NCBI GenBank assembly: GCA_965279525.1
Contig: CBDIIB010000005.1
Location: forward strand, 320,001 to 384,000
Direction: 5' to 3'
Length of the DNA: 64,000 bases
DNA from: Tagaea sp.
GTDB lineage: Bacteria > Pseudomonadota > Alphaproteobacteria > CACIAM-22H2
The position numbers were made by a program, and so were the translations under genes. This document shows positions 26,677-41,155 of this stretch, in pieces; positions within the stretch are counted from its first letter, which is position 1, and the number at the start of each line of letters is the position of its first letter. The notes under the pieces are model-generated. The model saw only the letters and a list, made by a program, of their open reading frames with translations, had not been told where the DNA came from and made no database searches.

Positions 26677-27221
26677 GTTCTTCCGTCAATGTCCTGGTTC
26701 CGCGCGACAGCGTCGAGGCCGACATCCCCGCCATCCAGGCGATCTACGCCCATCACGTGGCCAATGGCTTCGGAAGCTTCGAGGAAATCCCGCCGGATGC
26801 AGCCGAACTTGCCCAGCGCCGCCGCGCGATCCTCGACAAGGGCCTGCCCTACATCGCGGTCGACATCGACGGGAAACTTGCCGGTTACGCCTATGCCGGC
26901 CCCTTCCGGCCGCGGTCGGCCTATCGCTTCTCGGTCGAAGACTCGATCTATGTCGCACCCGGCCTCGCCGGTCGCGGCCTCGGTCGGGCACTGCTTTCGG
27001 CGCTGATCGAGCGCACGACCGCCTGGGGGGCGCGGCAGATGATCGCCGTGATCGGCGATAGCGCCAATGCCGGTTCGATCGGCTTGCATGCCAGCCTCGG
27101 TTTCCGCATGGTTGGGACGTTCCGTTCGATCGGGTTCAAGCACGCGCGCTGGGTCGACAGCGTGATGATGCAGCTGGCCCTGGGCGACGGCGACACGAAC
27201 GATCCGCCGGGGGGCCGATGA
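26673..27221 (+). CDS. GNAT N-acetyltransferase (phosphinothricin acetyltransferase/YncA-like)
   Basis: RSAYRFSVEDSIYV, GRGLGRALL and GFKHARWVD motifs. Confidence 0.9.
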   Translation: MSSSVNVLVPRDSVEADIPAIQAIYAHHVANGFGSFEEIPPDAAELAQRRRAILDKGLPYIAVDIDGKLAGYAYAGPFRPRSAYRFSVEDSIYVAPGLAGRGLGRALLSALIERTTAWGARQMIAVIGDSANAGSIGLHASLGFRMVGTFRSIGFKHARWVDSVMMQLALGDGDTNDPPGGR

Positions 27222-27883
27222 GCCAGACAGGAACAGCACGCCTCGAAGAGGCGCTGAATCTCCACAAGGCGGGCAAGCTCGCGGCGGCCGAAGCGGTCTA
27301 TGCCGCGATCCTTGCCGACAATCCGGACGATCTCGACGCGCTCAATCTCGGCGGACTTGCCCTGCATGCGCTCGGCAAGCGCGAACAGGCGGCCCAGCGC
27401 TTCGCGCGCGCCATCGCGATCTTCCCCGACTTCGCCGACGCGCATGCCAACCTCGGCGCCGTCCAGCGGACCGAGAACCGCCTCGACGACGCCGCCGTCA
27501 GCTTCGCGCGCGCCATCGAGATCGATCCCGCACACGGGTTCGCGGCGAACAATCTGGGCCTCGTGCGGCTGGCGCAGGGATCGTTTTTCGAGGCGATCGG
27601 GCGGTTTGCCCAGGCGCGCGCCCTGATGCCGGGGCAGCCCGAGATCGTGATCAATCTTTCGATCGCGTACATGTCGATGGGCGATTTCGTGACCGCACTC
27701 AAGGAACTCGACGTGCTCGTCGAGGCGGCCCCGAAGGACAAGCGGGCCCATTTCGGGCGCGGTGCCGCCCTGCTGGCGCTCGGCCAGAAGGCCGACGCGG
27801 TCGCGGCCCTGGAAAAGGCGCTGGCGCTCGATCCCGACTATGCCGACGCGCGCGCCAAGCTCGACGAGGCGAAGCGCGCCTAG
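27218..27883 (+). CDS. Tetratricopeptide repeat protein
   Basis: Repeated AIAIFPDFADAHANLG-type TPR units. Confidence 0.85.
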   Translation: MSQTGTARLEEALNLHKAGKLAAAEAVYAAILADNPDDLDALNLGGLALHALGKREQAAQRFARAIAIFPDFADAHANLGAVQRTENRLDDAAVSFARAIEIDPAHGFAANNLGLVRLAQGSFFEAIGRFAQARALMPGQPEIVINLSIAYMSMGDFVTALKELDVLVEAAPKDKRAHFGRGAALLALGQKADAVAALEKALALDPDYADARAKLDEAKRA

Positions 27884-27912
27884 CACTGCGATTTTCCGTC
27901 GAGGAGTTGCGG

Positions 27913-28416
27913 ATGTTTGCGCTGAAAAAGGCATCACCGGTTCCGCTCGACGCGATCCCGAGCGAGACGCTCAACGAACTGCTCGGCTTCTGGCGGCGCA
28001 AGTGCGGCAACGACCCGCTTCCGCGGCTCGGAAACATCAACCCGACCGAGGTCCAGAAGCTCCTGCCCCGGATGCATCTCCTGGCAGTCGAAGGGCCGGG
28101 AGTTTTCCGATACAGCATCTATGGATCCGGCGTCACGAATCCGGACCGGCTCGACATGACTGGCCGGACGACGCTCGACTACATCGACAAGGAATTTTCC
28201 CGGCTCGTCACGGCGCATATCGACGAGGCCGTACGGCTCGCGATGCCGAGCTGCTACCACATCGAGGCGGAGACCGACGCAAAGCCGTACGTCTATATCC
28301 GTCTCAGCCTGCCGATCGGCCAAGCCGGCAAGGTCAGTCACGTCCTCGTCGGAACCCAACGCATCGAGGTTGATCCTTCGGTGGACCGCAATGTGGACGG
28401 TACGCGGCTGGCATGA
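27913..28416 (+). CDS. PAS-domain (PAS_5-type) protein
   Basis: LLGFWRRK...LP....INP....LLP..FRY..G pattern. Confidence 0.7.
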   Translation: MFALKKASPVPLDAIPSETLNELLGFWRRKCGNDPLPRLGNINPTEVQKLLPRMHLLAVEGPGVFRYSIYGSGVTNPDRLDMTGRTTLDYIDKEFSRLVTAHIDEAVRLAMPSCYHIEAETDAKPYVYIRLSLPIGQAGKVSHVLVGTQRIEVDPSVDRNVDGTRLA

Positions 28417-28467
28417 CCGACGCGGCGGATTTGGATCCGGCGAACGATGGCCGGACGCCGGCATCCG

Positions 28468-28572
28468 GACAAAAAGAAAGGGCCGCGCCCGAAGGCACGG
28501 CCCAAGTTTAGGGAGGAAACGCCCACGAAACGGCCCGGAGGCCATTTCGAGCTGCGACAAATCAATGTCGCA
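28468..28572. repeat. Left att direct repeat (displaced sRNA copy, separated from native promoter)
   Basis: Identical to 38843-38947 (GACAAAAAGAAAGGGCCGCG...AAATCAATGTCGCA). Confidence 0.95.
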
Positions 28573-28663
28573 TTTTCCCAATAACTTGAGGTGCCTACGC
28601 TGGAATGGACGGAGACTAGTAGCAATGGCTACTGGCATCAAGCCTCTCAGTTCCGTGCGCCCG

Positions 28664-28682
28664 GTGTGACATGGGTGTGACA
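28664..28682. repeat. Putative integrase arm-type sites (GTGTGACA x2, 11-bp period)
   Basis: GTGTGACA at 28664 and 28675; same motif and spacing at the other island end (38796, 38807). Confidence 0.6.
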
Positions 28683-29053
28683 GGTCGCGACTAATAGTTC
28701 GGAAGGTTGCCAGAGAGGGGGGTGGACTAGGGCCATGCCGGGGGTGGGGGTAGTGCATATACGCGCTCGTGTGAAAATTCCTGACAGGAGTTGGCAACCA
28801 CCTCGACCAATCCGGATCGACCGATTGGATCCCACGAACAAAGAGCTAGCTCAGGAAATCTGGACAGCGGGATCTGCAGCATATCTGCCTGACGGTAGCC
28901 AATCTCCGCTATTGCAGGCACTCGACGCTCGGCTATGAGAGCCTGATAGCCTTCGAGGCGAAGATGCGGGTAGCTTAACTACGTGTCCACGGAACTCGGG
29001 GCATGCCAGATTATTATTGATTTGCATCGACGCCTTGACGTTAGTTTGTAGTT

Positions 29054-29584
29054 ATGACGTCAATCCGCACGATAGCTCTAGTCATTTTCGGGCTGTTTAT
29101 TGGCGCCGCAAGTCCTTCTGGGCTCGCGTCCGAACCCTTGCCTAAGGGTTTCTTTGAGCTTCGAAATCTGGAGTTTTCTACATCGTTTCAGGATGAAACC
29201 GGGCGACCGGTATCTTTAGAAAGTTTTCGAGGAAGAGTTGTGGTTCTGAATTTATGGGCAACATGGTGCGCGCCCTGTATCAAAGAGATGCCATCTCTAG
29301 ATCGGCTCTCGAAAGTACTCCCTGCCGATAAATTCGCGGTCGTAGCAGTGAGTCAAGACAATGCCGGTGTCCTCGTAGCGAAGCCTTTTTTGGCTAAACT
29401 TGGCGTGATGATGGTCAATTCCTATTTTGATCCAAGGGGCCGTGTATCACGGGACCTCAGCGCAAGAGGGCTTCCCACAACCGTCATTGTTAGCAGCAAG
29501 GGGACGTTAATTTCGCGCCTCGAAGGCGCGATTGAATGGGACGCGCAAGAGGTGGTTTCGTACCTTAAGTCGCTTACTCATTAG
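29054..29584 (+). CDS. TlpA/ResA-family extracytoplasmic thioredoxin
   Basis: N-terminal hydrophobic anchor/signal; LNLWATWCAPCIKEMPSL and GLPTT motifs. Confidence 0.92.
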   Translation: MTSIRTIALVIFGLFIGAASPSGLASEPLPKGFFELRNLEFSTSFQDETGRPVSLESFRGRVVVLNLWATWCAPCIKEMPSLDRLSKVLPADKFAVVAVSQDNAGVLVAKPFLAKLGVMMVNSYFDPRGRVSRDLSARGLPTTVIVSSKGTLISRLEGAIEWDAQEVVSYLKSLTH

Positions 29585-29647
29585 CCTTGCCCTCCTCTGT
29601 TGTTTCCCTTAAAGTTTTTTTAAGTTAATTTTGTGTGGGGGAACGCC

Positions 29648-29995
29648 ATGAAACTATTGGTTGGTTTTGTCTTTGCGGTATTCGCACTTTTTGCGGTCGC
29701 AAACCCTCCTGCCAATGCATCTGACGGATGCGTTGTGATAAAGTCTTCGCAATTGATGGCAGCCGAAATCAATGAATTGGGCTCGCCAGACGCAAAGTTC
29801 GCCATCGCCTCTTTGGAATCTTTCGCCAATGGAGCTGTTGAGAAGATTGCCAAAGAATCATCGGTCGGCAATCAAGGAAGCACCATTCAACTCGCTCAAA
29901 GCCGTAGCACCGGCTGCTCTTCCGGTTGCTCCAACGGGTGCTCCACCGGTTGCTCTGTCGGTTGTTCCGTTGGCTGTTCAGTAGGTTGTCGATAG
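29648..29995 (+). CDS. Secreted Cys-rich repeat peptide (115 aa) with C-terminal (xGCS)7-type tail; candidate precursor or metal-binding peptide
   Basis: GGGGGA RBS; Sec-type signal ending ANA; tail TGCSSGCSNGCSTGCSVGCSVGCSVGCR with synonymously diverged codons. Confidence 0.85.
   Translation: MKLLVGFVFAVFALFAVANPPANASDGCVVIKSSQLMAAEINELGSPDAKFAIASLESFANGAVEKIAKESSVGNQGSTIQLAQSRSTGCSSGCSNGCSTGCSVGCSVGCSVGCR
29909..29992 (+). repeat. Degenerate 12-bp tandem repeat x7 encoding xGCS
   Basis: accggctgctct tccggttgctcc aacgggtgctcc accggttgctct gtcggttgttcc gttggctgttca gtaggttgtcga. Confidence 0.9.
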
Positions 29996-30027
29996 TTGAT
30001 CCAGTGTCGTTAGTTTCTCAGTAGCTA

Positions 30028-32706
30028 TTGGCGAGTTTATCGACACATGCACGGCCCGGTTGGCAAGACCGGGCCGTTTGCATTTGGGCCGTAGCACTCA
30101 CAGCCACCTCGGCTTTTGCTATAGTTGATGCCAGTGAAGTTGCCGCACATTCCGCCGCGCTAGTTGGATTTCTTTTCCCGTCCAGGACTAGCCAAATTAG
30201 GCGAGTGGTATTGGTGCTCTTGGCAACAATTGGTTGGATGTTCGGTCCAACGTCTCTAATTGCTACAACTACGGGAATGCTTCTGATCGTTGCTATGGCA
30301 GATACAGCCATCGCCTTTGCATTTGCGATATGCACATGCGCATTTCTAGGTCACCACTTTCAGTCAATCGAGAGAATTTCGGGGCTAACTTTTCATATAG
30401 GCTCTTCGCCGTTTATTATTCTTCCTGCAATTGTCGCCTGCACATCTCTCAATTGGCGAATTGGATGGAGTGGCGTTCTCACTATCTTACTAGCCGCTAC
30501 AACTGTGCTCATCGGTATAAATTTGTCGGCAGCAATATGGATCAATCACAACACTTTGACATCTCAATATTTCCGACTGGCGGCTTCCGTGCTGCCGATT
30601 GCTATCGCAGCGCTCGCAGTTAGTTCGGGATCTACGCAATGCTTAAAAATGCCTTCTGTCTTTTGGATGCTCGGCGGCGTGACTATTGGCGCACTAGTCA
30701 CATTTGCTGCGCCCCAGTTTCCAGTCTCCCAGATCGTTTTTGACGAGGCTCATGGTCGCTGGGAAACCGTCAGGGCAACATTCGGTCCTAACGATTTCGG
30801 ACGCAGCGCAAACTACACATATAGCCTTCTAGAAAGGCATGCTGATCGTCTCGTAGGTTCTACTACCCTGGACAATGAGGGGGATTCGTTACCCCCCCAT
30901 GCCCTATTTGTATTGAAAATGCCCACAACGGCACTTTCAGATGAATTTTCCAGCCGACTTTATCAATGGATTTCCGATGGAGGGCGCCTATTGGTAGTGG
31001 CCGACCACACTGACCTCTACGACACTACTCAGAACTTGAATTTGTTTTTGCAGCTACTAGGCGTCAGCATAAATTCGGACGCGGTGTTTGATACGCGCGG
31101 AATGCCGACCGTCCCTGAGACGGAACAGTTCGCCTTTTTTCTGGGCCGCATAGACGCTTACGCAAAACCGCTTCCTTGGCAGACGGGTGCAAGCTTCGGA
31201 AGATTGCCCGCGAACGCCGTGGAGTTAGCGTCCTATGGGCCATCTTTCTCGGAGCCCGGCGACTATTCTCGCCCGAATCGCTTTGGCCCCTTCTTGCCAC
31301 GCTCCACTCTTCGCTTCACAAAACATACGGCAGTTGCGGCCTTCTCTGTTGGGGCGGGAGCAGTTGCCATCATTCTTGACAGCACGCCGTGGTCAAATTT
31401 TTCGATCTTTATTGACCAATATACGCGACTATTCCGATCTATCGTTTTCGCACTAAGCAATCCTATCGCAATAAAAATCTGGGGGTGGGCCGCACTGCTT
31501 CTGCCAATTGCGGGCATAGCTGTTCTGGTTTGGAGAACACGCACGATACTTGTTCTAGGTGGCGCCGTATTAGGTCTTGTCGTTGGTGCAGCTAGCCAGA
31601 TTGGTGCCCTATCTCATTTAATGCCGGTTGAGGGGCGGGATTTTGGATTGAAAGTTCAACTAGGAAACTCCGCTCGACTGGAGTTCTTGAAGCAACTTGT
31701 TGGGTCAGGAGACCGAAATTTTTCGCGAATTATTTCTGCCATGGCGAAGTACGGCCTTAATCCTTCGGCAGAGCTCCCAGGCACTGATGCTCAAACAATT
31801 TCTACCGCGAAGCGATGGCTTTTTATTCAGCCAGAGTTTCGCACTCTTCCAAATATTCAAGTCGTCCTGCGTCACCTCAAGGCTGGTGGCGATCTCACAA
31901 TTCTGTTTGGCCCAGAACAAGGGCAGAGCATGGAAATCGAAACTTGGCTGCGTTCGTTAGGGCTTAATTTGCGAAAGACTGTGGCGTTAGCTGTAGCAGA
32001 AGATGCGTATCTCGATCAGGGTGGATTGCTTACTCGCAGAGGACCATCGATCATCCGCGACGTACGGCCGGTCACTTCTGCTCTTCCAACCAGTATTCTG
32101 AAGCCTCACGATGGTGATCAGTTCTTTCAGTCTTATACATTGCGGCCGACTACGCTGCCCCGCACTAGTGGCCGGCTAACAGTAGGGTTCTCGGCCGATC
32201 AATTCTCAGATGATGCAGTAGGCGAAGTATGGGAGGGGACGAATCCTGCATCTATCGGGCGGTTGCGCGAACGGCAACTTGCATCCGCATTATTGGGGGA
32301 GGATTTCCCCGCACCATTCCCCAGCGAACTTGCCTATGTGCAGGCAAAAAAAGAGGGTAAAGCGCTTACTTCGTATCTAGTAATGGAGGATGGACGCACA
32401 ATCATTACGGGAAAATTCGAATCAGTTGAGAACACTACTGAAAATGTAGCTGCTATAAATCCGTCCGCCAATCCGGTGGGATATTTGCAGGACCTGCGCT
32501 CACGGGCACTGTCATTCGTTGACTTAAATTGCCCTCTAAGCGGCAAGGTCACATTCTGCGAGCGTCGAATGCTCGGCCCCGATATGACTGAATGGATGGT
32601 TTCCTGGGCGGCAGATATGAACGGAGCGCCGGTGGCGCTGGAGCTACTGCACGAGCGGCGGTTTTCGGGCCTCGGTAGCACGGTCAATGTTGTCTTTGGC
32701 GAGTAG
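30028..32706 (+). CDS. Large polytopic membrane protein with a DUF4350/class-I-GATase-like soluble domain (hypothetical)
   Basis: About 7-8 N-terminal hydrophobic segments, then IVFDEAHGRWE, GGRLLVVADHTD and IILDSTPWSN motifs, two more TMs and a C-terminal domain; start codon uncertain. Confidence 0.75.
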   Translation: MASLSTHARPGWQDRAVCIWAVALTATSAFAIVDASEVAAHSAALVGFLFPSRTSQIRRVVLVLLATIGWMFGPTSLIATTTGMLLIVAMADTAIAFAFAICTCAFLGHHFQSIERISGLTFHIGSSPFIILPAIVACTSLNWRIGWSGVLTILLAATTVLIGINLSAAIWINHNTLTSQYFRLAASVLPIAIAALAVSSGSTQCLKMPSVFWMLGGVTIGALVTFAAPQFPVSQIVFDEAHGRWETVRATFGPNDFGRSANYTYSLLERHADRLVGSTTLDNEGDSLPPHALFVLKMPTTALSDEFSSRLYQWISDGGRLLVVADHTDLYDTTQNLNLFLQLLGVSINSDAVFDTRGMPTVPETEQFAFFLGRIDAYAKPLPWQTGASFGRLPANAVELASYGPSFSEPGDYSRPNRFGPFLPRSTLRFTKHTAVAAFSVGAGAVAIILDSTPWSNFSIFIDQYTRLFRSIVFALSNPIAIKIWGWAALLLPIAGIAVLVWRTRTILVLGGAVLGLVVGAASQIGALSHLMPVEGRDFGLKVQLGNSARLEFLKQLVGSGDRNFSRIISAMAKYGLNPSAELPGTDAQTISTAKRWLFIQPEFRTLPNIQVVLRHLKAGGDLTILFGPEQGQSMEIETWLRSLGLNLRKTVALAVAEDAYLDQGGLLTRRGPSIIRDVRPVTSALPTSILKPHDGDQFFQSYTLRPTTLPRTSGRLTVGFSADQFSDDAVGEVWEGTNPASIGRLRERQLASALLGEDFPAPFPSELAYVQAKKEGKALTSYLVMEDGRTIITGKFESVENTTENVAAINPSANPVGYLQDLRSRALSFVDLNCPLSGKVTFCERRMLGPDMTEWMVSWAADMNGAPVALELLHERRFSGLGSTVNVVFGE

Positions 32707-34636
32707 CCGCCGAAGCGCCGCCTTCGCGGCGGTTGCGTCCGCCGCAGCGCATGCCTTTCCATTGGCCGCGCCATGGAGTCTGGTACTCCTTTTAGTGCCA
32801 TTTAGTGTTGGCCTGTTTGTTTTACGTAAGAGATCGAATCGCATCATTTGGCTGGTTCTTTGCACAAGCATTGCTGGCGCTGTTCTTGCCGGTATAGCTC
32901 CGGCACCAATTGCCATTGCATCTCTCTCCTTCACAGTATTGATATTTGTTGGCGCAGCTAGCGTCGGAGCTGCGCTGCTACTACTCAACATGTCTGTGAT
33001 TGGTAGTGCTGAGATGATGCTCGCACAGACGCTTGATATGATCGGACTAGAAGCAGCTGCGCCAGCAATGTTGACAACGGCAGTCTTGGTGATCGCTCGA
33101 CCCTCCGCTATTTCCGCTGGGGTTTGTTTAGCGGCAGTCTCCGCAATAGCTGCTCTTGTTGCTGACAAAATCGCCTCTCACCCGTATGCATTAATGATCG
33201 CCGCAGCAGTTCCGGCCACCATCTTTTCTGTTGTCGTATGTTTTGTTTCCGAGTCTTCACCAAGAGCCCGCTCTCTCGTGTTTATTGCCATTGCTTTCGG
33301 CTTGCTACTGCCTTGGGCAGCTACTCCCCCGAGATCGTGGGGCGAGATATTTGTTCTATTGCCAGATGCATCGGACACATACGAGGCACAGTTCTTTAAG
33401 AACTATACCGACGCCCTCAGATTTGCAGGCATACGAGCGGAGAGGGTTACTCGACTAAACGACATACCATCAAGATCATTGGTACTCATGCCGTGGACAT
33501 CCGCAGATTTTAAATCTGCGGATGACAACGAGATGCTCAAAAGCATAGGGCAGCTAGCTCAAGGTCATCAATGGACCGTTATCGTAGGCGGGGAGCATAC
33601 CAACTTGGGCGGTGCGGCGGACCGGATAGAAGCCATGAGCGGAAAGCCTTTTCTGCGCCGAGACCTCACAGTGCCGCCGTACAATACTGATGACTCTGGT
33701 CCTTTACACGTCTCTGATCTTCGTGAGTGGCCGCATGGAAGTATTTTGAATCGCGGCGCAAGCGTCGAAATAATGTCGCTTCTCGATAAAGTGCTGTTAG
33801 CCGGAGACGGATGGTGGGCAGAGCCCGACTTGGGCGAATGGCTGTGGGTCGGTGACTATATTTGGCGTTCAGGAGAGCGCGCCGGCCGAATGGCCTTGGC
33901 AATCGCTTCAGATTCAGGCGGTGCCCGCTGGATCATTGTTGGCGACAATAGCTTTTTCCTAAGTAACCAAATTTACGCTGATCCACGTACTTTGCTTCGA
34001 TTGATTGAACTCGCCTCGCTTTGGCCTGCTCTTGTTAAAGACATTGCGATTGGATTTCTCGCTATAGCAGGTTGCTTGCTTATGCTTGCTCACGTCACGT
34101 TAGCCGAAGCTAGCATCACGATGTCTTCCGTCTTTTTTGTAGTTTCTGGCATCTATATATTTCTATTTCCAACACCAGAGAGCAGTAGGTGGAGGGATAC
34201 ATACGTTGACCAAATTGGATTTGATGAAAGAAATTTCAACCTGGCATTCACGGAGAGCCCGCTACTTACAAACAGTAGGCGCCTGATGCGATTGAAGGGT
34301 TCATTCACCGGTGAATTTGAAGTTCCTCACGGAAACGCAATTATCTTTTTGCACGTTGATGGAACGATGACGGCTGGCAAAGCACGACTTACTAACTGCC
34401 GCCGGCTAGGTGCGCTTGCGCTTGAAGAAGGGCCGTACCTGATGGACGCCCAAGCCTGCCGCGTTACAGGTGCGGATAGAATTTTGATTGGTACTCCAGA
34501 AGCTGCTGTCGCATTTTCGATTCAATACGGATTGTCTGAAGCAATTTTTATTCTGGACACCGTCTTTCTAGGGCAAAAGGCGCCATCGAGTAATGCGGAT
34601 TGGTTGATTCGGGAGATGGCGATTGAGAAACGATAA
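32687..34636 (+). CDS. Polytopic membrane protein, apparent paralogue of the upstream gene (hypothetical)
   Basis: Overlaps the upstream stop; N-terminal TM block, then VIVGGEHTNLGG and WIIVGDNSFFLSN motifs, two TMs and a C-terminal domain. Confidence 0.75.
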   Translation: MLSLASSRRSAAFAAVASAAAHAFPLAAPWSLVLLLVPFSVGLFVLRKRSNRIIWLVLCTSIAGAVLAGIAPAPIAIASLSFTVLIFVGAASVGAALLLLNMSVIGSAEMMLAQTLDMIGLEAAAPAMLTTAVLVIARPSAISAGVCLAAVSAIAALVADKIASHPYALMIAAAVPATIFSVVVCFVSESSPRARSLVFIAIAFGLLLPWAATPPRSWGEIFVLLPDASDTYEAQFFKNYTDALRFAGIRAERVTRLNDIPSRSLVLMPWTSADFKSADDNEMLKSIGQLAQGHQWTVIVGGEHTNLGGAADRIEAMSGKPFLRRDLTVPPYNTDDSGPLHVSDLREWPHGSILNRGASVEIMSLLDKVLLAGDGWWAEPDLGEWLWVGDYIWRSGERAGRMALAIASDSGGARWIIVGDNSFFLSNQIYADPRTLLRLIELASLWPALVKDIAIGFLAIAGCLLMLAHVTLAEASITMSSVFFVVSGIYIFLFPTPESSRWRDTYVDQIGFDERNFNLAFTESPLLTNSRRLMRLKGSFTGEFEVPHGNAIIFLHVDGTMTAGKARLTNCRRLGALALEEGPYLMDAQACRVTGADRILIGTPEAAVAFSIQYGLSEAIFILDTVFLGQKAPSSNADWLIREMAIEKR

Positions 34637-34646
34637 ATCGCCTACG

Positions 34647-35063
34647 ATGATTGGACTACTGCCAGGTGGCGTGCCTCAACGGGAACCGTACCCTTCGGAA
34701 GACGTGTTTTTTAAAAGAAATATGCACATCTCAGGATTGGCAGCCGAAGATAATTCGGTTGTTCTAAACCCGTACAGCAATCTCTCTCCGACAGAGCGTC
34801 GCTGCGTTGCACTTAACGAAGCCGCCAGAGTTGTTATGCGGCGAGACCCTGAGTTGCAGCCCATATTCGATCTCACACCCGAACAGCTTGCTTCCTTCCA
34901 GAGCTACGGTCCCTTAGATAGCGTCAGAGCTACCGTAGCAGCGCGAATTCTTTCAGGTGATCCTAGTGCGTTGAGACCGACCGTCGACCAAACTAAGTTT
35001 GTGAAGAAACTCGCCACCGCGATGGGCCTCAAGAAGCGTAAGGCGGCCCCTTCCCCTGGCTAG
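34647..35063 (+). CDS. Hypothetical protein (possibly phage-related)
   Basis: Open frame of ~138 aa with natural composition immediately after the membrane-protein genes. Confidence 0.6.
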   Translation: MIGLLPGGVPQREPYPSEDVFFKRNMHISGLAAEDNSVVLNPYSNLSPTERRCVALNEAARVVMRRDPELQPIFDLTPEQLASFQSYGPLDSVRATVAARILSGDPSALRPTVDQTKFVKKLATAMGLKKRKAAPSPG

Positions 35064-35131
35064 TAACACGGGGGGGTTCAAAATGAACTTTCTTTGGTTC
35101 TATTTGGCGCGGGGGTCCTATAGACCCACAC

Positions 35132-35385
35132 TGTCCGTCGTCAGAATAATCGGGACGTTTTGAGGCGGCTGTTAACGGAGGCTTCGGCGCATCTGCGTTG
35201 GCAGTATTGGCGGTCGCTTGCCGATGCCAGCAAGCGGCGGTGCTCGATGGTTCTGCGCTTGATCGTCTCCCTCCTTTCCAGAATGGCCTGCCCACGTTCG
35301 GTATAGACGTTGGCCCGCGCGAGGATACTGAGGCGCTCGTGGTATCGGCAGTAGTTGTAGTGATCGACGAAGCTGCCGATGCTCG
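35132..35385 (-). pseudogene. IS3-family transposase C-terminal remnant with adjacent IS end
   Basis: IGSFVDHYNYCRYHERL...VYTERGQAILERRETIKRRTIEHRRL resembles IS3 OrfB C-termini; TGTCCGTCGTCAGA end-like sequence at 35132. Confidence 0.7.
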
Positions 35386-35397
35386 CGTAGTGAAGAG

Positions 35398-35631
35398 TCA
35401 CTTCGCAGCAGTTGCCCTGAAACGCCCCCCAGTCAGAGCGGCGCGTAACTCTTTCTGGAACCGCCCCTGTATCTGAATCGTACCCTTCTTGGGCCACCAG
35501 TTGAGTATTTGCCCAAGGTCAGTCGTGAACGTCGCCCGCCCATCCTGGCCGCCCAAAGCCCAAGTACCGACGATACCGAGCCGAGTGATCTCATTGCGTA
35601 GCTCACTGATGGTTCCTACGAATGGCTCCAT
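35398..35631 (-). CDS. Small hypothetical protein (77 aa)
   Basis: AAGGA RBS upstream; LNWWPKKGTIQIQG motif. Confidence 0.55.
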   Translation of the reverse strand: MEPFVGTISELRNEITRLGIVGTWALGGQDGRATFTTDLGQILNWWPKKGTIQIQGRFQKELRAALTGGRFRATAAK

Positions 35632-36086
35632 TCGATGTGATCCTTCTCTGTTGACGGTCGGCTAGGCCCCGTTGCCATGCCATTCGAGTCAGGAGAGTCG
35701 CCACACACTGGCAACCACCCTCTTGGTACCTACCTAGCCAGATTGGAACGGCCGACTCAGTGACTCTCTAATGGCGATTGAGGCCCTATGGACTTGGGCT
35801 TTCTAGGACCCCCGTGGGGGATATGCCTTGCCTCGTGTGCCTGCCTTATTGGCAGATCAGAAGGGGCATCTCCTGTTAAGGCCTTGATACTGAGTCATTG
35901 TCCGTAACAGTGACCATCGAATCCAGTAACTGATCTTAGTTATAGTTATTACTATTATTCTTCTCGCAAAAAGGGCCGTAATTTCCCTCGGATCTAGGCG
36001 GTCTCTCCCTTTCTATCTTCCAAATTCATCCCTACAGCACCCTTACAATGGGGTAGTGCGCTTCCAACCGTGGGCGAAGCCCACAG

Positions 36087-37532
36087 TCACACCAACTCCT
36101 TCCGATAGGCCCCCCGAAGGGGGTAATCATTCTTTCCATCCGAGATCATAAACAGACTGGCATCCATAAGATTGGATCCATCGATCATCTGCTTACCGTC
36201 ACGATCTGTGATCTTCAGGCTAATCAGTACCCCGAATCGTTCCTGGAACACTTGGACCATGACCCTCTGAAGCTCCTCAGAACGCTCCTCCGCAATGATG
36301 AAGCTGTCGTGGACCGGGAGTACGGGGATCCCTTCGTCTGCGAAGTGCAGCATGACCGTCTCTGCGAGCTGGCTCTCCCAGAACTGCATGGTCTTGCCTA
36401 CGCCCGTATGGAACAGGTCGCTCAGCGGAGCGAAGTGCAATTTGACCCTCTCGACGAACTCGCCCCGTGTGACGCCGAGTACTGTCTCGTCATAACCCTC
36501 TTCCAGGTCGAAGCTCTTGAGATGAGGTTGACGAACCCATCCCCTCTTATCGTTGATCAGGGCATTGAAGGTCTTCTTCACCCATATCCGAACGATTGGC
36601 GGGGCATCCGGGAACGCGTCGTACACATCGGCAGGAATTGGCATGCTCCGGGATGCGTAGAGCATGCTCGGGTGTAGGCCGACATAGTCCACTTCGACCG
36701 TCTGATACCCATCGATGGTCAGATATGGTCGGTACTCCTTAGGCATGTTCTGCCATGAGGATTGGAAGAATCGACCACCGCGCTGGAAGCTTGCATCGTT
36801 GAACTTGCGCACAAGAGTTCGCTTGCGTGGATCGAATGGTCGACGGAGCTTCGTGCCTATCATGCGCCGGTTGAGATCGATCAAATCGCCGGGCAAGAGA
36901 TCCATTGCAATCTTGGAGTCTCGGAGTACCGCGTTGATGGTCCCAATATTCGCCCGCTTCGCCTCTGTTTCAGGCGTCGGATCGAACTGGATCGGTTTCT
37001 TCATCGCGTCCCGAAGCTCGATATCCGCGTGCCAGTGGTCAACGTGCTCGATCTCATCTGGGGAGAAATCGGGAATTGCTACGATCCGCTCGATCAGGCT
37101 CGGCGTAGCTCGTATCTTCGTGTTGAAGTACATCGCGGCACTCGGCGCATACAATCCTTTCTTGGCAATCTCGATAAGCCCGGCAGTCCGCAGTCCTTCG
37201 TACGCTTGGATCATCGGGCGATAGGTTATCCCTCGCTGGGCATATCGACTGGTTGCCGCATATTTGCTCCGATTGAGATCGATGCCGACGGTGCACCCGG
37301 GCAGATTTTCATGCGCAAGAATCAGGTTCAGAAGGAGAGCGCGAAGAGCTGCAGTAAGGCGTTCAAGCTCCATCTTGGAGCGCTTGCGACGACCCGAAGC
37401 CGTGTCAATCTCAGTGGCGATCTGTGAGACGAGGACATCGAAGCCCTCGTTCTCAATCACGTAGCTGGGGTCAATCGGAACAGAAAGTATTTGGGACGGG
37501 CTGACTGCATCACTCAAGTTGCGATCCTTCAT
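36087..37532 (-). CDS. Stand-alone superfamily-A polymerase-like protein (PolA/T7-RNAP-type palm; TV-Pol-like)
   Basis: GGRFF..WQN, motif A VEVDYVGLHP, motif B-like KKTFNALIN, QFWES and motif C PVHDSFII; no exonuclease domain evident. Confidence 0.7.
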   Translation of the reverse strand: MKDRNLSDAVSPSQILSVPIDPSYVIENEGFDVLVSQIATEIDTASGRRKRSKMELERLTAALRALLLNLILAHENLPGCTVGIDLNRSKYAATSRYAQRGITYRPMIQAYEGLRTAGLIEIAKKGLYAPSAAMYFNTKIRATPSLIERIVAIPDFSPDEIEHVDHWHADIELRDAMKKPIQFDPTPETEAKRANIGTINAVLRDSKIAMDLLPGDLIDLNRRMIGTKLRRPFDPRKRTLVRKFNDASFQRGGRFFQSSWQNMPKEYRPYLTIDGYQTVEVDYVGLHPSMLYASRSMPIPADVYDAFPDAPPIVRIWVKKTFNALINDKRGWVRQPHLKSFDLEEGYDETVLGVTRGEFVERVKLHFAPLSDLFHTGVGKTMQFWESQLAETVMLHFADEGIPVLPVHDSFIIAEERSEELQRVMVQVFQERFGVLISLKITDRDGKQMIDGSNLMDASLFMISDGKNDYPLRGAYRKELV

Positions 37533-37770
37533 GGCAGCAAAGGACGCAAGGGGCGTCGTCGCCCAACGACGTCCTTAGATTCTGAGATGAGATTGACTTG
37601 AGGCAGTGGCAAGACCGAGTCTTCGCGTGCTGCCTACATATTACTTGGGCATCACGCGGAGACTTTTCAAGTGAGTGACGATGAATTTCTCACATCGCAG
37701 TTTCACCCGCCCCTGTCTTTGGCAGTGAAGCTCGAAGGGACTTGGAAATCCCCGTTGAGGCTAGGCCCTT

Positions 37771-38793
37771 TCAGGGAACTGCATCCGGTGGTGACAGCAG
37801 TACCGGGCCAGATTCGGTAGCAACTTGCTTGGCCGATAGGCATGCGAGCTTCTTCGCAACATCTTCAGGCCGAAGATGCGTGTAGCGAAACAGCATGCGC
37901 GGATCCCGGTGCCCGGAGATCAGGGCGACTTCGGGGATGCTCAACCCGGCTTCGAAGAACCGGCTAACAGCCTCGTGGCGCAGGTCGTGAAAATGTAGAT
38001 CCTCGATCCCAGCTCGACGCACTGCGCGATACCACCTCATTTGGATTGCCCTCGGACTCCACTCGAATATGCGATGCCCCTCTCTGCACGGAAGGCTCTG
38101 AAGGATAGCTACGGCAACAGGAGTAAGCGGGATAGTTCGAGGGTAACCGTTCTTGGCTTCCCTAACGACGAGGAGACTAGAGGCTAGATCAATATCGGTC
38201 GGCTCAAGTCGGACAAGCTCGCCCCTTCGCAGGCCGGTCTCCAGCGCGAACAAGACAAGGCCATGGAACTTGGGATCGAGGGCCGCCAGCAATAGCCGCA
38301 TTTCCCCAGGCGCTATTCGCCGTGTCCGATGCCTGCCTGCCGCAGGCTTGCGAACCTGAATGAGGGCATCCGCCATCGGCATCGACCATTCGCGATGGGC
38401 ATACCGCAGAATTGTCTGCAGCAAACCAAGCTCCCGCCGGACAGTCTCGGTCGAACACGCAGCTAGGCGGCGATCACGATATTGGGCAAGGCAGGAGGCC
38501 GGAATCTGATGCATGGGAAGATGCATCCATTTTTCTCGCAGCATGACCGCGAGTAGCCCCACGCAATTCTCTTCGCGCCGCATCGAGACGGCAACTTCGG
38601 TTCGATAGCGTTCGACTACGTCGATCAAGGGTGGGGCAGTCAGAACCAAGGCCTCCCCGAGGTCGACCCGACGCTCGTGGAGCCGCGCCCATTGCTGGGC
38701 ATCCTGACGTGTTGAAAAGGTCTTGCTGAGCTTGTGTCCTGCGCGACGGACCTGAACCTGGTACATCGAGCCGCGACGACGAATGGTAGCCAT
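37771..38793 (-). CDS. Tyrosine recombinase/integrase with N-terminal arm-binding domain
   Basis: MATIRRRG..YQVQVRR N-terminus; catalytic TGLRRGEL (R), AKNG (K), HDLRH (H-x-x-R), SGH and RYTHL (Y). Confidence 0.93.
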   Translation of the reverse strand: MATIRRRGSMYQVQVRRAGHKLSKTFSTRQDAQQWARLHERRVDLGEALVLTAPPLIDVVERYRTEVAVSMRREENCVGLLAVMLREKWMHLPMHQIPASCLAQYRDRRLAACSTETVRRELGLLQTILRYAHREWSMPMADALIQVRKPAAGRHRTRRIAPGEMRLLLAALDPKFHGLVLFALETGLRRGELVRLEPTDIDLASSLLVVREAKNGYPRTIPLTPVAVAILQSLPCREGHRIFEWSPRAIQMRWYRAVRRAGIEDLHFHDLRHEAVSRFFEAGLSIPEVALISGHRDPRMLFRYTHLRPEDVAKKLACLSAKQVATESGPVLLSPPDAVP

Positions 38794-38795
38794 GC

Positions 38796-38821
38796 TGTGA
38801 CACCCGTGTGACACGCGTGAC
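38796..38821. repeat. Putative integrase arm-type sites (TGTGACA x2 at 11-bp period plus a partial GTGAC)
   Basis: ctgtgacacccgtgtgacacgcgtgacc between the integrase start and the right att repeat. Confidence 0.6.
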
Positions 38822-38845
38822 CAGCAACCGGGCTAACCCTTTGAC

Positions 38846-38947
38846 AAAAAGAAAGGGCCGCGCCCGAAGGCACGGCCCAAGTTTAGGGAGGAAACGCCCA
38901 CGAAACGGCCCGGAGGCCATTTCGAGCTGCGACAAATCAATGTCGCA
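38846..38947 (-). ncRNA. SuhB/MmgR (alpha-r8)-family small RNA, promoter-retaining copy; lies within the right att repeat 38843-38947
   Basis: Minus strand: hairpin CGAAATGGCC-TCCG-GGCCGTTTCG, UUUCCUCCCU decamer, ACTTGGGCCG terminator stem and U-tract; TTGTGCA heptamer just upstream. 5' end approximate. Confidence 0.8.
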
Positions 38948-39103
38948 CTGCACAATTTAATTGTTGCGGCGCAAAAATCAAGGGCAATTATGCGGTGACC
39001 ATCTGAAATCTCATGATTAATTTGTAGTACTTCGATTATCCACCTGATTTATTTGTGCTATTCGAGGCCCTCTCAGACCCCCTCCCTTGCCGCAATGCAG
39101 CAT
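38948..39103. promoter_or_regulatory. AT-rich divergent promoter region (sRNA / mlaE) with TTGTGCA heptamer and TGC-GCA-rich motifs
   Basis: TGCACAA at 38949-38955; TTGCGGCGCAA and TGCCGCAATGCAGCA motifs resemble PhaR/AniA-type operators (inference). Confidence 0.45.
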
Positions 39104-39188
39104 ACAGAAATACGAATGTAGAGGATCAGCGACGCTCCAAGGGACGGCTTGCCCTTGCTGCGGCCCGGCTTCAAGAATGGGTGGACGC

Positions 39189-40358
39189 ATGGAGTCGGGA
39201 CGGATGGACGGGGACCGCACACAGCGCGGCGATGCCGGCTGGGCGCGCAGCCGCTTGGAAGGGTCCGCCGCCGTCGTGGCGCTCGGCGGGCGCTGGACAC
39301 TTGCGCACGCGCGCACGCTCGAGGAAACGCTCGGCCGCATCGACACGAAAGGTGCGGCGGCGCTGCGCATCGACTTTTCCGATGTCGCGGCGATCGACAC
39401 CGGCGGTGCATGGCTGCTGCACCGGCAAATCCTGCGCTGGCAGGAAGCCGGCGGCGAGATCGAGCTTGTCCGCGCGAACCATGCCCAGACCGCCCTGCTC
39501 GAGCGCATGTCGATCGAGAACGAGGTCCGCATGTCGCTGGCACGCCCCGGCGAAGGGGCGATGCGCGAACTCGTCATCCGGACCGGCGAGGCGACGGTCG
39601 ATATGGCGCGCGAGGCCCATGCGCTGCTGTCGTTCGTCGGCGCCGTCTTCTCGGCGTGGGGCCGCGCCTGGCGCAGGCCCGGCCGCATCCGCCTGACGAG
39701 TACCGTCTTCCACATCGAGCGCATCGGCATCGACGCACTGCCGATCATGGGGCTGCTGGCATACCTGATCGGCGTCGTTCTCGCGTTCCAGGGCGCCGAC
39801 CAGCTTCGCCAGTACGGCGCGGAAGTTTTCACGATCAACCTGCTGGGCGTGTCGATCCTGCGCGAGATCGGCGTGCTGATCACCGCGATCATGGTCGCCG
39901 GGCGCACGGGCAGCGCCTTCGCCGCCGAGATCGGGACGATGAAGGTGAACCAGGAAGTCGACGCCATGCGCACGATCGGCCTCGATCCGATGGAAACGCT
40001 CGTCATGCCGCGCCTGTTCGCGCTGGCGATCGCCCTGCCGCTTCTGGTTTTCTTCGCCAACGCGATGGCGCTTGCCGGCGGTGCCACGATGGTCATCGTC
40101 GGGCTCGACCTGTCGCTGCCGCAGTTCTTCGAACAGCTTGCCGCAGCGGTCACGTTTTCCACGTTCCTCGTCGGCATGATCAAGGCGCCGGTCTTTGCGG
40201 TGCTGATCGGCATGGTCGCATGCTACGAAGGACTGAAGGTTTCAGGATCGGCCGAAAGCGTGGGCATCCACACCACGCGTTCGGTCGTCAAATCGATCTT
40301 CCTGGTCATCCTGTTCGACGCCGCCTTCTCGATCTTTTTCTCGCAGATCGGCCTATGA
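39189..40358 (+). CDS. mlaE: MlaE-family ABC permease with N-terminal STAS domain
   Basis: DTGGAWL STAS motif; REIGVLITAIMVAGRTGSAFAAEIGTMKV. Confidence 0.9.
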   Translation: MESGRMDGDRTQRGDAGWARSRLEGSAAVVALGGRWTLAHARTLEETLGRIDTKGAAALRIDFSDVAAIDTGGAWLLHRQILRWQEAGGEIELVRANHAQTALLERMSIENEVRMSLARPGEGAMRELVIRTGEATVDMAREAHALLSFVGAVFSAWGRAWRRPGRIRLTSTVFHIERIGIDALPIMGLLAYLIGVVLAFQGADQLRQYGAEVFTINLLGVSILREIGVLITAIMVAGRTGSAFAAEIGTMKVNQEVDAMRTIGLDPMETLVMPRLFALAIALPLLVFFANAMALAGGATMVIVGLDLSLPQFFEQLAAAVTFSTFLVGMIKAPVFAVLIGMVACYEGLKVSGSAESVGIHTTRSVVKSIFLVILFDAAFSIFFSQIGL

Positions 40359-41155
40359 GCGAACCCGTCATCCGCGTCCGCAATCTCGTCACCCGCTTCG
40401 GCGCGCAGACGATCCATGACGGCGTCAATCTGGAAGTCCGGCGCGGCGAGATCCTCGCGATCGTCGGCGGCTCGGGAACCGGCAAGTCCGTCCTGCTGCG
40501 CACGATCCTGGGACTGAAGGCACCGGACGGCGGCACGGTCGAGGTGCTCGGCAAGAACCTCTCCGCACTCGACGACGACGCGCGGCGGCCGGTGCTCAAG
40601 CGCATGGGTGTCCTGTTCCAGGATGGCGCGCTGTTCAGCGCGCGCACCGTGGCCCAGAACATCCGGCTCCCCTTCTCGGAGCATACCGACCTCGACCACC
40701 GGCTGGTCACCCAGCTCATCCGCGTCAAGCTCGCGATGGTCGGGCTGCCGCAGGAGGCCGGCGCCAAGATCCCGGCCGAGCTGTCGGGCGGCATGCGCAA
40801 GCGCGCGGGACTGGCGCGCGCCATCGCCCTCGACCCCGACGTCCTGTTCCTCGACGAACCGACCGCCGGTCTCGACCCGATCGGGGCGGCGAAGTTCGAC
40901 GAGCTGATCCGCGACCTGCAGCGCTCGCTTTCGCTCAGCGTCGTGATGATCACGCACGACGTCGACACGCTCTGCGCGATCGCCGACCGCATCGCGGTCC
41001 TGCTCGACAAGAAGATGGTCGTCGGAACGCTGGACGAAATCCGCGCCTACCCCCATCCTTGGGTCCACGAGTACTTTTCCGGCCCGCGCGGACGCGCGGC
41101 GCAGACCGGGCGCTACGAGCCGGACGAAAAGACTTCGGACAGGAAGGACGCCTAG
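40355..41155 (+). CDS. mlaF: MlaF-family ABC ATPase
   Basis: GGSGTGKS, LSGGMRKR and DEPTAGLDP motifs. Confidence 0.9.
   Translation: MSEPVIRVRNLVTRFGAQTIHDGVNLEVRRGEILAIVGGSGTGKSVLLRTILGLKAPDGGTVEVLGKNLSALDDDARRPVLKRMGVLFQDGALFSARTVAQNIRLPFSEHTDLDHRLVTQLIRVKLAMVGLPQEAGAKIPAELSGGMRKRAGLARAIALDPDVLFLDEPTAGLDPIGAAKFDELIRDLQRSLSLSVVMITHDVDTLCAIADRIAVLLDKKMVVGTLDEIRAYPHPWVHEYFSGPRGRAAQTGRYEPDEKTSDRKDA

Follow-up and report, generated by a model that had tools for sequence, protein, structure and literature searches.

Probable integrase-driven insertion of a 10.3-kb element into a suhB/mmgR small RNA gene of Tagaea sp.

Introduction

Rules for the sublocation of islands within tRNA genes were reportedly set out by Williams in 2002. 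Genomic islands in tRNA and tmRNA genes make up the Islander class, as described in excerpts of Hudson et al. 2015 (PMC4383910). Such islands have a tyrosine integrase at one end, split and rebuild their RNA gene, and leave a displaced piece at the far end. Their identity block runs from a stem-loop to past the 3′ end of the gene, their occurrence is sporadic and their composition foreign. The TIGER/Islander announcement nowhere mentions sRNA, ncRNA or Rfam.

Integration at small regulatory RNA genes has been described in enterobacteria. Prophages integrate at ryeB in Salmonella and at ryeE in E. coli, according to excerpts of Bobay, Rocha and Touchon 2013 (PMC3603311), in which Balbontin 2008 and Wassarman 2001 are cited for these cases. 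The same excerpts give further integration sites at most 1 kb from conserved sRNA genes, 11 in E. coli and 4 in S. enterica.

The MmgR (Sinorhizobium meliloti) or alphaR8 family of sRNAs includes SuhB of Sphingopyxis granuli and SisA-D of Caulobacter, for which duplication as well as vertical and lateral transfer are reported as routes of spread (excerpts of PMC12542648, PMC7143759, PMC12559287 and a bioRxiv preprint). S. meliloti mmgR has its own promoter with a PhaR/AniA-type operator, in the same excerpts. The family is linked to carbon storage and stress, and is known for its multiple copies and lateral spread. The excerpts of the mmgR/suhB literature consulted here describe neither a mobile-element insertion at the gene nor phage copies of it.

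Here, we analyze a 64,000-nucleotide stretch of a Tagaea sp. genome (the window). It contains a 10.3-kb element that was probably inserted by its own lambda-type tyrosine integrase into an attB formed by the suhB/mmgR gene. The element shares with Islander-type islands the integrase at one end, the split and rebuilt RNA gene, the displaced piece at the far end, the identity block from stem-loop to past the 3′ end, the sporadic occurrence and the foreign composition. It differs in its target, which is a regulatory sRNA gene and not a tRNA or tmRNA gene. Moreover, its identity block comprises the whole transcript (105 bp), whereas the displaced piece of Islander-type islands is a 3′ fragment; therefore, the piece displaced here is a complete gene. 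Like the ryeB and ryeE prophages, as far as the excerpts describe them, the element has a hairpin-containing small regulatory RNA gene as attachment site, but it differs from them in host bacteria, sRNA and integrase.

Results

Repeats and sRNA copies

A first-pass annotation of the window had reported perfect 105-bp repeats around a low-GC block, and this held in full. The repeat search gave a pair of direct repeats, each 105 nt long and 100% identical to the other, which occupy 28468-28572 and 38843-38947 with a spacing of 10,375 bp from start to start. They enclose an inserted island of 10,270 bp (28573..38842), with a GC content of 0.532 as a whole, compared with 0.667 and 0.676 in the flanks. 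Along the block, GC ranged between 0.49 and 0.56, versus 0.65-0.70 outside. One further repeat family was found in 27000-40500, a 47-nt pair, 74% identical, within a TPR gene.

Both repeats matched the suhB/mmgR family RF00519 on the minus strand, above the Rfam gathering cut-off of 41 bits and over model positions 1-77 of 77. The scores were 52.5 bits at 28465-28549 and 52.1 bits at 38840-38924, and these two copies were the only RF00519 matches in the entire genome. The earlier assignment of the repeat to the SuhB/MmgR sRNA was thus confirmed, as were the elements it had listed on the minus strand: both copies contain the hairpins, the UUUCCUCCCU seed and the GGGCCG..CGGCCC terminator with its U tract. 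The intrinsic terminator has 10 pairs, followed by a T run. In the centroid fold (MFE -55.1 kcal/mol, z -7.04), the CCUCCC anti-Shine-Dalgarno seed is unpaired between hairpins. Compared with the excerpted descriptions of MmgR/alphaR8, the window sRNA belongs to the same Rfam family, shares the CCUCCC seed and the terminator, and has upstream a TTGTGCA-type box resembling the PhaR/AniA box. The copy in this genus has an additional 5′ hairpin, and would be ~105 nt long if transcription starts just upstream, compared with 77 nt for MmgR.

This hairpin, TGCGACA-TTGATT-TGTCGCA (7-6-7), lies at 38928..38947 (minus strand), and the same sequence is found in the left copy at 28553-28572. The seven pairs are intact in every one of the 14 native copies of the genus; one change is compensatory. 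The 5′ end of the repeat coincides with the first base of the hairpin, from which the repeat extends through the terminator. We propose that the hairpin is the first stem-loop of the RNA.

The two copies differ in their surroundings. Upstream of the right copy lies the native promoter region (38948..38982, minus strand), recognized by alignment within the genus and by comparison with the PhaR boxes upstream of mmgR and phaP2 in S. meliloti. A candidate promoter consists of CTTGAT (38982-38977), a 17-nt spacer and TAAATT (38959-38954), with CTTGAT identical across all native copies in the genus alignment. Because it matches the consensus at only 8 of 12 positions, it was absent from the list of a promoter scan, which gave another site (39014-38987). 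The heptamer TTGTGCA, noted earlier as retained only by the right copy, is indeed found upstream of this copy alone (38955-38949), and island DNA precedes the left one. Judged by its sequence, TTGTGCA is the putative left half of a PhaR/AniA-type operator, with a 21-mer spanning 38958-38938; by S. meliloti geometry it would also be the -35 region. The TTGTGCA-N-TGCGACA box of the right copy resembles published PhaR boxes, and the left copy retains the right half only. The repeat boundary falls within this PhaR-like operator, and as a result the native promoter was kept by the right copy only. In the DNA preceding the left copy, the promoter scan found nothing resembling a sigma-70 site.

The copy at 38843..38947 (minus strand) is therefore called the promoter-side copy: its upstream DNA matches the native promoter region of congeners, and it is presumably the rebuilt, working gene. 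The copy at 28468..28572 (minus strand) is the displaced one. It is full-length and followed by native downstream DNA that matches the congeners, and the island DNA upstream of it does not match them. The sRNA was thus restored and a second full copy left on the far side, as had been suggested in the first-pass annotation. That annotation had also stated that a nearby tRNA-Val is not used; this tRNA-Val(GAC), at 25633-25707, is 2.76 kb from the left repeat and is not touched by any repeat. Regarding the definition of a tDNA island, a rebuilt target with a displaced copy and precise absence from relatives (G019 and G011) were found, but the target is not a tRNA or tmRNA gene. Because the target is the RF00519 gene suhB and tRNA-Val is untouched, the element works like a tDNA island without being one by definition.

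Empty sites, a sister remnant and read data

Two congeners, G019 and G011, lack the island at the same place. In both, the left flank, a single suhB gene and the right flank are contiguous, so that the empty site searched for was found. In the base-level alignment, the right copy is preceded by the native promoter, and the left copy is followed by the native downstream DNA. A tandem duplication of the sRNA gene, followed by insertion of unrelated foreign DNA between the copies, would also give two copies around a low-GC block. Extra suhB-family copies do occur: there are three within 600 bp in G082, and two on one contig in both G033 and G069; an excerpt of the Caulobacter paper mentions multiple copies of this sRNA family in many genera. 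However, these paralogues have diverged (87-93% identity over 28-52 nt), whereas the copies in the window are identical at 105 of 105 positions. Furthermore, the low-GC DNA exactly fills the interval between the repeats, the left copy has island DNA directly upstream instead of a duplicated promoter, and the congeners with the empty site have one copy. We consider such a duplication very improbable.

Among the 50 genomes of the family, occupied suhB sites were found only in this genome and in a sister species, G012. Two sRNA copies are present at the same place in G012, together with a 60-codon integrase fragment and 1.27 kb of low-GC DNA. The integrase fragment is a pseudogene with two stop codons. 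Divergence of the G012 island DNA is close to the neutral rate of the flanks, which makes it probable, as judged from these divergences, that the remnant stems from the same old insertion and not from an independent second one. The double-copy genomes G004, G434, G439 and G442 had no match to the integrase within ~7 kb. The same-strand suhB pairs of G033 and G069, found in a class sample of 151 genomes, were rejected as occupied sites; they are diverged paralogues, with no integrase or GC dip.

The stretch was present in four public runs, all from one study and available as k=31 unitigs. In three of them (X1-X3), the unitigs contain each of the four junctions between flank and repeat or repeat and island. 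Unitigs of this k-mer size break within the 105-bp repeat, and the integrated form and an empty site plus circle give the same graph. A single unitig of 10,330 nt spans the island and reaches 30 nt into the repeat on either side. These data bear on an assembly artefact, in which the island or the second repeat would be misplaced. In its favor, unitigs cannot resolve repeats longer than the k-mer, and the sample may be mixed, since the runs also contain suhB variants of other organisms and a right-flank variant. Against it stand the four junctions and the unitig joining the island to both repeats, the assembly of the genome in only 5 contigs, and the same design at the same place in the independently assembled G012. 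An artefact is extremely improbable. Of the findings that the first-pass annotation had named as fatal to its reading (no Rfam match, an artefactual repeat, no empty site), none was obtained.

Integrase and arm motifs

The tyrosine integrase gene is located at 37771..38793 on the minus strand. Its product matched Pfam PF00589 (E 2.1e-22, 80.1 bits, cut-off 27.1) and the PHROGs integrase family phrog_1 (E 4.1e-49). In an alignment of 10 sequences, R196, K221, H276, R279, H302 and Y311 were in invariant columns; we take these six to be the catalytic R, K, H-x-x-R, H and tyrosine nucleophile. The reading frame is open from a GTG at 38814, but alignment with relatives, whose proteins begin with MA[ST]IR, makes the ATG at 38793 the likely start. 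The integrase begins 49 nt after the promoter-side sRNA copy, on the same strand. This order, sRNA before integrase, is that found in relatives in which a tRNA gene precedes the integrase.

Short repeated words were found on both sides of the island. The integrase-side arm (38795..38813, minus strand) has TGTCACAC (38813-38806) and TGTCACAG (38802-38795), 11 bp apart and directly before the integrase start codon. The distal arm (28664..28682, minus strand) has two exact TGTCACAC words, also 11 bp apart and 92-110 nt from the repeat. Counting exact or one-mismatch copies, both arms thus have pairs with a distance of 11 bp. Exact TGTCACAC occurs three times in the 64-kb window, always within the island arms and on the sRNA strand. 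With one mismatch it was not enriched window-wide (23 matches, 26 expected); the motif was spotted in the sequence before its test, and the striking part is the clustering of the exact copies only. The integrase-side arm is conserved, with changes, in G012. By their sequence and placement, the words are candidate arm-type binding sites of the integrase. An intact integrase together with TGTCACAC words in both arms argues for integrase-driven insertion into the sRNA gene.

The proposed steps are as follows. The attP of the element would carry a 105-bp block identical to the stretch of the sRNA that begins with the first stem-loop and ends with the terminator, and would recombine site-specifically with attB, the suhB/mmgR gene. 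The 7-6-7 hairpin, with which the block begins at its 5′ end, would be the most likely place of strand exchange. By analogy with a tRNA anticodon stem-loop, this hairpin would provide a pair of binding arms in inverted orientation, separated by a 6-nt spacer, and it is likely the core and crossover site. In the promoter-side copy, all sequence 3′ of the crossover would come from the element, so that the gene would stay whole behind its native, putatively PhaR-controlled promoter. The original 3′ part would be joined to the 5′ part of the element, giving a second full-length copy 10.4 kb away, in which the native -35 region is missing along with the left operator half.

The crossover scar is unreadable, because both repeat copies are identical, a point in favor of a Campbell-type insertion. 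In that case, a circular element with its own complete suhB-type gene, such as many alphaproteobacterial phages carry, would have been inserted by RecA across the ~105 bp, with the integrase uninvolved. A perfect identity of 105 bp suffices in length for RecA. The suhB/mmgR core was found in at least 120 viral contigs, and 19 of 20 scanned viral suhB loci exceeded the Rfam cut-off; complete suhB-type genes being common in phage contigs, a copy borne by the element could in principle recombine by homology. Several observations speak against it. The integrase is 49 nt from the block and ordered as in relatives beside tRNA genes, repeated arm motifs are present on both sides of the block, and a family member in G121 shows the same design at tRNA-Val. 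The identity block stops exactly at the first base of the hairpin and includes no promoter; an attP explains this better than a carried gene does. In addition, an integrase was the nearest ORF to the sRNA in just 4 of 80 phage-contig loci. Homologous insertion is therefore improbable, and site-specific integration into the sRNA gene is the reading followed below.

Integrase relatives and their target sites

Apart from the pseudogene fragment of G012, relatives of the integrase were at most 53% identical in every search. Searches of genome contigs gave five loci (best 45% over the full length), and those of metagenome contigs four (best 44%). In a class sample of 401 genomes, relatives were found in 20 other genomes (29-46%). 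Within the family, 15 of 50 genomes including this one had matches, the best (53%) in G015 being half a protein at a contig edge. IMG/VR had at least 582 relatives, the best at 39%. Relatives with readable context were located beside tRNA genes or had no recognizable RNA gene, and none was beside suhB; they sit mostly at tRNAs. The idea of an integrase clade specialized for an sRNA target, put forward in the first-pass annotation together with a proposed survey of homologues, was not supported by these data: one intact integrase of this kind was found, and the other case is the 60-codon fragment of G012 at the same site.

The G121 island offers a comparison within the integrase family. It is a low-GC island of 12.5 kb in tRNA-Val(GAC), bounded by a related integrase (35% identity; family-profile score 210 bits), with a direct repeat of 55 bp from the first base of the anticodon loop to beyond the tRNA 3′ end. 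Its arms have TTCACA[CG] motifs, which flank its integrase. The suhB island resembles it in integrase family, low GC, a repeat from a stem-loop to past the 3′ end, TCACA-type repeats by the integrase and the same chromosomal neighborhood; suhB and tRNA-Val are 1.6 kb apart in G121 and 2.8 kb in the window. In contrast to the 105-bp repeat of the suhB island, that of G121 is 55 bp long and starts in the anticodon loop. Its integrase, 35% identical, is at the far end beside the displaced fragment, on the opposite strand. A speculative and rather doubtful idea is that the integrase lineage may have shifted, within this conserved neighborhood, from the anticodon loop of tRNA-Val(GAC) to the first hairpin of the nearby sRNA.

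Cargo of the island

A 481-aa protein is encoded next to the integrase (36087..37532, minus strand). It belongs to the phage family phrog_4756 (PHROGs, E 5.2e-38), and 183 phage records match it at no more than 25% identity, all annotated as hypothetical among the matches listed. It had no match in Pfam, NCBIfam or PDB sequences. A VHDSF motif, which we assumed to be polymerase-like, suggested a polymerase-like protein, but this reading was supported by no test and was dropped. Residues 38-73 of an ORF at 35141..35497 (minus strand) form a small transposase remnant of the IS3 family: over 34-36 residues, they are 61-65% identical to loci with that annotation. The ORF had no Pfam match.

The cargo genes form a row on the plus strand (29054..35063; Pfam, NCBIfam). 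The first, at 29054-29584, encodes a TlpA/ResA-like thiol:disulfide oxidoreductase (Redoxin, E 1.7e-16), which scored 122 bits against the TlpA model, under its cut-off of 230. The remaining ORFs encode, in order, proteins of 120, 892, 649 and 146 aa with no attributable function; the 892-aa protein has a weak DUF4350 match (33.2 bits, cut-off 30.4). The cargo was also considered as a defense system, which was rejected, as none of the six cargo proteins matched PADLOC. No excisionase was recognized among 12 small ORFs (16 proteins scanned, E up to 1). Searches with Pfam, NCBIfam and PHROGs found no capsid, terminase, tail, relaxase or type IV secretion genes among the island ORFs, three large ones of which have no family. 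Within the scope of these searches, the element is probably neither a prophage nor an integrative conjugative element. The IS3 remnant and the decay in G012 suggest that the element may no longer be mobile.

Discussion

Phage insertion into enterobacterial sRNA genes is known, so what is new here is the target and not the mechanism. The mechanism of insertion is textbook; the target gene alone is unusual. For research on mobile elements, the locus is a clean case, at base level, of a tRNA-type integrase family with a regulatory sRNA gene as attB, and the empty site is at hand in a congener. Island-finding software restricted to tRNA and tmRNA genes misses such islands. Because the sRNA is highly conserved, the 105-bp attB and the integrase could serve as an insertion tool for Alphaproteobacteria.

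The displaced copies of this genome and G012 are identical over 104 nt, and the adjoining island DNA is 71-80% identical. Given one shared old insertion, the probability of this identity under neutral drift is between 1e-4 and 4e-13, depending on the divergence assumed. If the insertion is shared, this contrast would point to selection on the displaced copy. As a tentative and rather doubtful reading of these sequences, the displaced copy might be maintained by selection as an additional sRNA gene no longer under PhaR control, and island insertion might be one route by which alphaR8 siblings with new regulation arise and move laterally. For sRNA biology, the locus offers a concrete route for the duplication of an alphaR8/MmgR gene and its separation from its putatively PhaR-controlled promoter.

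An island bounded by two copies of an sRNA gene

As the first-pass annotation had described, the low-GC block was bounded by perfect 105-bp direct repeats, at 28468–28572 (left copy) and 38843–38947 (right copy), which were 100% identical to each other. The GC content of the 10,270 bp between them was 0.532, versus 0.667 and 0.676 in the flanks. The proposed identity of the repeat as a SuhB/MmgR sRNA also held. The Rfam scan placed an RF00519 match on the minus strand of both copies, with 52.5 bits (left) and 52.1 bits (right) against a gathering score of 41, and both matches spanned the full-length model (positions 1–77). They were the sole RF00519 matches of the whole 4.35-Mb genome. In the predicted fold of the 105-nt block (MFE −55.1 kcal/mol, z −7.04), a first hairpin of 7 bp closed by a 6-nt loop is followed by one of 10 bp, then by a single-stranded CCUCCC seed stretch, and finally by a terminator of 10 bp and its U tract. 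The neighboring tRNA-Val(GAC) (25633–25707), correctly noted as unused, lay 2.76 kb away, outside the repeats and untouched by them. An N-formylglutamate deformylase-like gene (25783–26676, plus strand) was located 1.8 kb from the sRNA.

The empty site was present in two congeners. With a 568-bp left-flank probe, the same locus was retrieved from G019 (86% identity) and G011 (77%), and Rfam found one tRNA and one suhB in each of the 14-kb stretches taken from these genomes. In BLAST, the left flank of the window, a single repeat copy (98% over 102 nt) and the right flank lay next to each other. In G019, the left flank extended up to 5204, the repeat covered 5240–5341, and the right flank started at 5343. 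In a four-way alignment, native upstream DNA was found at the right copy and native downstream DNA at the left copy; everything between the two is insert. Accordingly, none of the three objections anticipated in the first-pass annotation applies: a missing Rfam match, a repeat created by assembly, and relatives lacking an empty site.

In one public sequencing run (X1), the island unitig was identical to the window, the right-flank unitig (window 38953–39734) had nine differences, and the depth of the left flank was ~2× that of the island. These observations hint at a second strain in the sample.

The island has the same design as those in tRNA and tmRNA genes. It differs from the Islander definition, which requires a tRNA or tmRNA target, in that its target gene is suhB/mmgR, and thus it works as a tDNA-type island without being one. 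Phage insertion into the sRNA genes ryeB and ryeE is documented in PMC3603311, together with 15 further sRNA-adjacent integration sites in E. coli and Salmonella. In the literature searched, no description of suhB/mmgR as an attachment site was found.

Gene content and integrase

The cargo included, on the plus strand, a TlpA/ResA-like thiol:disulfide oxidoreductase and four more ORFs (120, 892, 649 and 146 aa, the 892-aa ORF with a weak DUF4350 match), and also a short IS3 transposase remnant. The integrase was adjoined by a 481-aa protein (36087–37532, minus strand) of the phage family phrog_4756 (E 5.2e-38). Distant relatives of this protein (≤25% identity) occurred in 183 records, from large Aeromonas, Vibrio, Rheinheimera and other phages, and all those listed were annotated as hypothetical. 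No defense-system, conjugation or virion genes were recognized in the island cargo, and no excisionase among its small ORFs. The island is best viewed as a small integrative element, possibly in decay.

The tyrosine integrase ORF (37771–38814, minus strand; PF00589 E 2.1e-22, phrog_1 E 4.1e-49) had R196, K221, H276, R279, H302 and Y311 in invariant columns of an alignment with nine relatives. Its start is likely the ATG at 38793, 49 nt past the repeat. The motif TGTCACAC, picked post hoc after the sequence had been viewed, occurred without mismatch at just three places of the 64-kb window (28664, 28675 and 38806). Each of these falls within an island arm, on the strand of the sRNA. The copy at 38806 has a one-mismatch neighbor at 38795, at a distance of 11 bp, and the distal pair is spaced in the same way. 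Allowing one mismatch, 23 copies were observed in the window and 26 expected. Overall enrichment was thus absent, and the signal lies in the clustering of the copies.

Integrase relatives and the crossover site

A survey of homologues did not support the suggested integrase clade specialized for the sRNA. Of 29 loci of relatives, 17 had a tRNA gene according to ARAGORN. Rfam detected no suhB in any of 25 loci scanned. Upstream flank was present for 42 IMG/VR loci: in six of them, a tRNA lay no more than 400 nt from the start of the integrase, and the suhB core was absent from all 42. No close relative was found in any set searched: the best identity was 45% over the full length in genome contigs and 44% in metagenome contigs. 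Relatives with 29–46% identity were present in 20 other genomes of the 401-genome class sample. G015 reached 53%, but with half a protein only, at a contig edge. IMG/VR held at least 582 relatives, the best at 39%.

The single relative resolved in full was in G121 (L312, G121:C18:70000-89000). Here, a 12.5-kb block with a GC content of 0.48–0.53 was inserted in tRNA-Val(GAC) and bounded by an integrase of the same family (features at 4009–4093 and 15486–16617 of L312). Its 55-bp direct repeat reached from the first anticodon-loop base to 13 nt beyond the tRNA, and its arms carried TTCACA[CG] motifs. The neighborhood was the same as in the window, with suhB 1.6 kb upstream of the tRNA. Based on the tRNA loci of the relatives and the G121 anatomy, the window integrase is a member of a tRNA-targeting family.

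Judging by these sequences, members of the family use a stem-loop for crossover, and their attP supplies the remainder of the RNA gene. In the window, this stem-loop would be the first hairpin of the sRNA, TGCGACA-TTGATT-TGTCGCA, located precisely where the identity block begins on its 5′ side. The hairpin was kept in all 14 native genus copies; its loop varied, and one change in it was compensatory.

Promoter and operator of the two copies

In the genus alignment, all native copies were preceded by CTTGAT, a spacer of ~17 nt and a TA..TT hexamer (window 38982–38977 and, as TAAATT, 38959–38954, both minus strand). The pair agrees with the consensus at only 8 of 12 positions and for that reason was not listed by the promoter scan. 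A TTGTGCA heptamer (38955–38949, minus strand) preceded the right copy and formed, with the first repeat bases, TTGTGCA-G-TGCGACA. This resembles the PhaR boxes of S. meliloti mmgR and phaP2 in PMC12542648; in S. meliloti, the mmgR box (3046679–3046699) ends 13 nt ahead of the MmgR RNA (3046712–3046789).

Two starts can be considered. By analogy with S. meliloti, the sRNA would start near 38924, the start of the Rfam model, with TTGTGC as −35 element. Alternatively, the CTTGAT/TAAATT pair would set the start just ahead of the first hairpin. The latter is favored by phage copies of the sRNA, which likewise carry a −10-like CATAGG just ahead of a first hairpin. With either start, the repeat boundary cuts the putative PhaR-like operator, and the left copy would then be missing either the −35 element of the native promoter or that promoter as a whole. 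The promoter scan gave no promoter-like site upstream of the left copy, nor does any gene of the island read into this copy.

A further short palindrome, TTGCG-C-CGCAA, lay between CTTGAT and TAAATT (38961–38976, minus strand). It was conserved in most of the genus and resembles some PhaR boxes in PMC12542648. The native promoter may have two candidate operators.

sRNA copies in phages and plasmids

The 21-nt sRNA core occurred in at least 120 IMG/VR contigs of alphaproteobacterial phages and prophages (L107–L186 among them). A full RF00519 match above cut-off was found in 19 of 20 loci scanned, and the 80 loci fetched had 76 distinct sequences. Mostly, the copies were within late modules and not beside an integrase, which was the nearest ORF in 4 of 80 loci. 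The upstream ORF was NusG-like or an antiterminator in 11 loci, and several copies preceded terminase genes. Their position, in many cases between these two gene types or directly after capsid or portal genes, suggests that the phage copy is a late-operon leader RNA, terminated by its own terminator. With suhB/mmgR-type genes so common in phage contigs, the island could have entered by homologous recombination through an element-borne sRNA instead of by integrase action, which we consider very improbable.

Twenty-two plasmids (Roseomonas, Methylobacterium, Azospirillum and others; records H1–H20) matched the 3′ 55–60% of the repeat with 80–88% identity. The matches covered the seed and terminator, in a region with no annotated feature, and are probably unannotated plasmid-borne alphaR8 copies. 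PMC12559287, citing other work, attributes the spread of the alphaR8 family to duplication and to vertical and lateral transfer. In one genome of the class sample, a tandem of three suhB copies on one strand, spanning less than 600 bp (G082:C60:54432-55030), is an example of sibling sRNAs from local duplication. Mobile elements of Alphaproteobacteria often handle this sRNA.

One insertion or two

The nearest genome, the sister species G012, had flanks 91.5–91.7% identical to the window (G019 86%, G011 81–84%). At the same site, it had an sRNA copy behind the native promoter, a second copy straddling a contig break, and a 1.27-kb insert (GC 0.506). The insert contained an integrase fragment of ~60 codons (65–71% identical, two stop codons) and a 242-aa membrane-protein ORF for which the window had no counterpart (best E 0.34). 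The gene of a MopJ-like PAS-domain protein (window ORF 27907–28416), between a TPR gene and the sRNA in the window's genome, G019 and G011, was absent from G012 (L072, G012:C261), whose alignment leaps from window 28456 to 27881 (gap 27882–28455).

The island DNA common to both species was 80% identical on the integrase side and 71–76% in the distal arm, and identity at third codon positions was 81–89% for mlaE, mlaF and mlaD in the flank. The island thus appears to have diverged roughly neutrally. For this reason, it is simpler to assume a single insertion that preceded the split of the two species and later decayed in G012, and we lean slightly towards this reading. The displaced copies of the two species were identical over 104 nt. 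If there was a single insertion, the chance of such identity under neutral drift would be 1e-4 to 4e-13, depending on the divergence assumed (8.5–24%), and the displaced copy would therefore either be under selection or be homogenized with the working copy through gene conversion. Alternatively, there were two insertions, of related elements that differed in cargo. Related integrases would then have struck the sRNA site on two occasions, a point in favor of site specialization.
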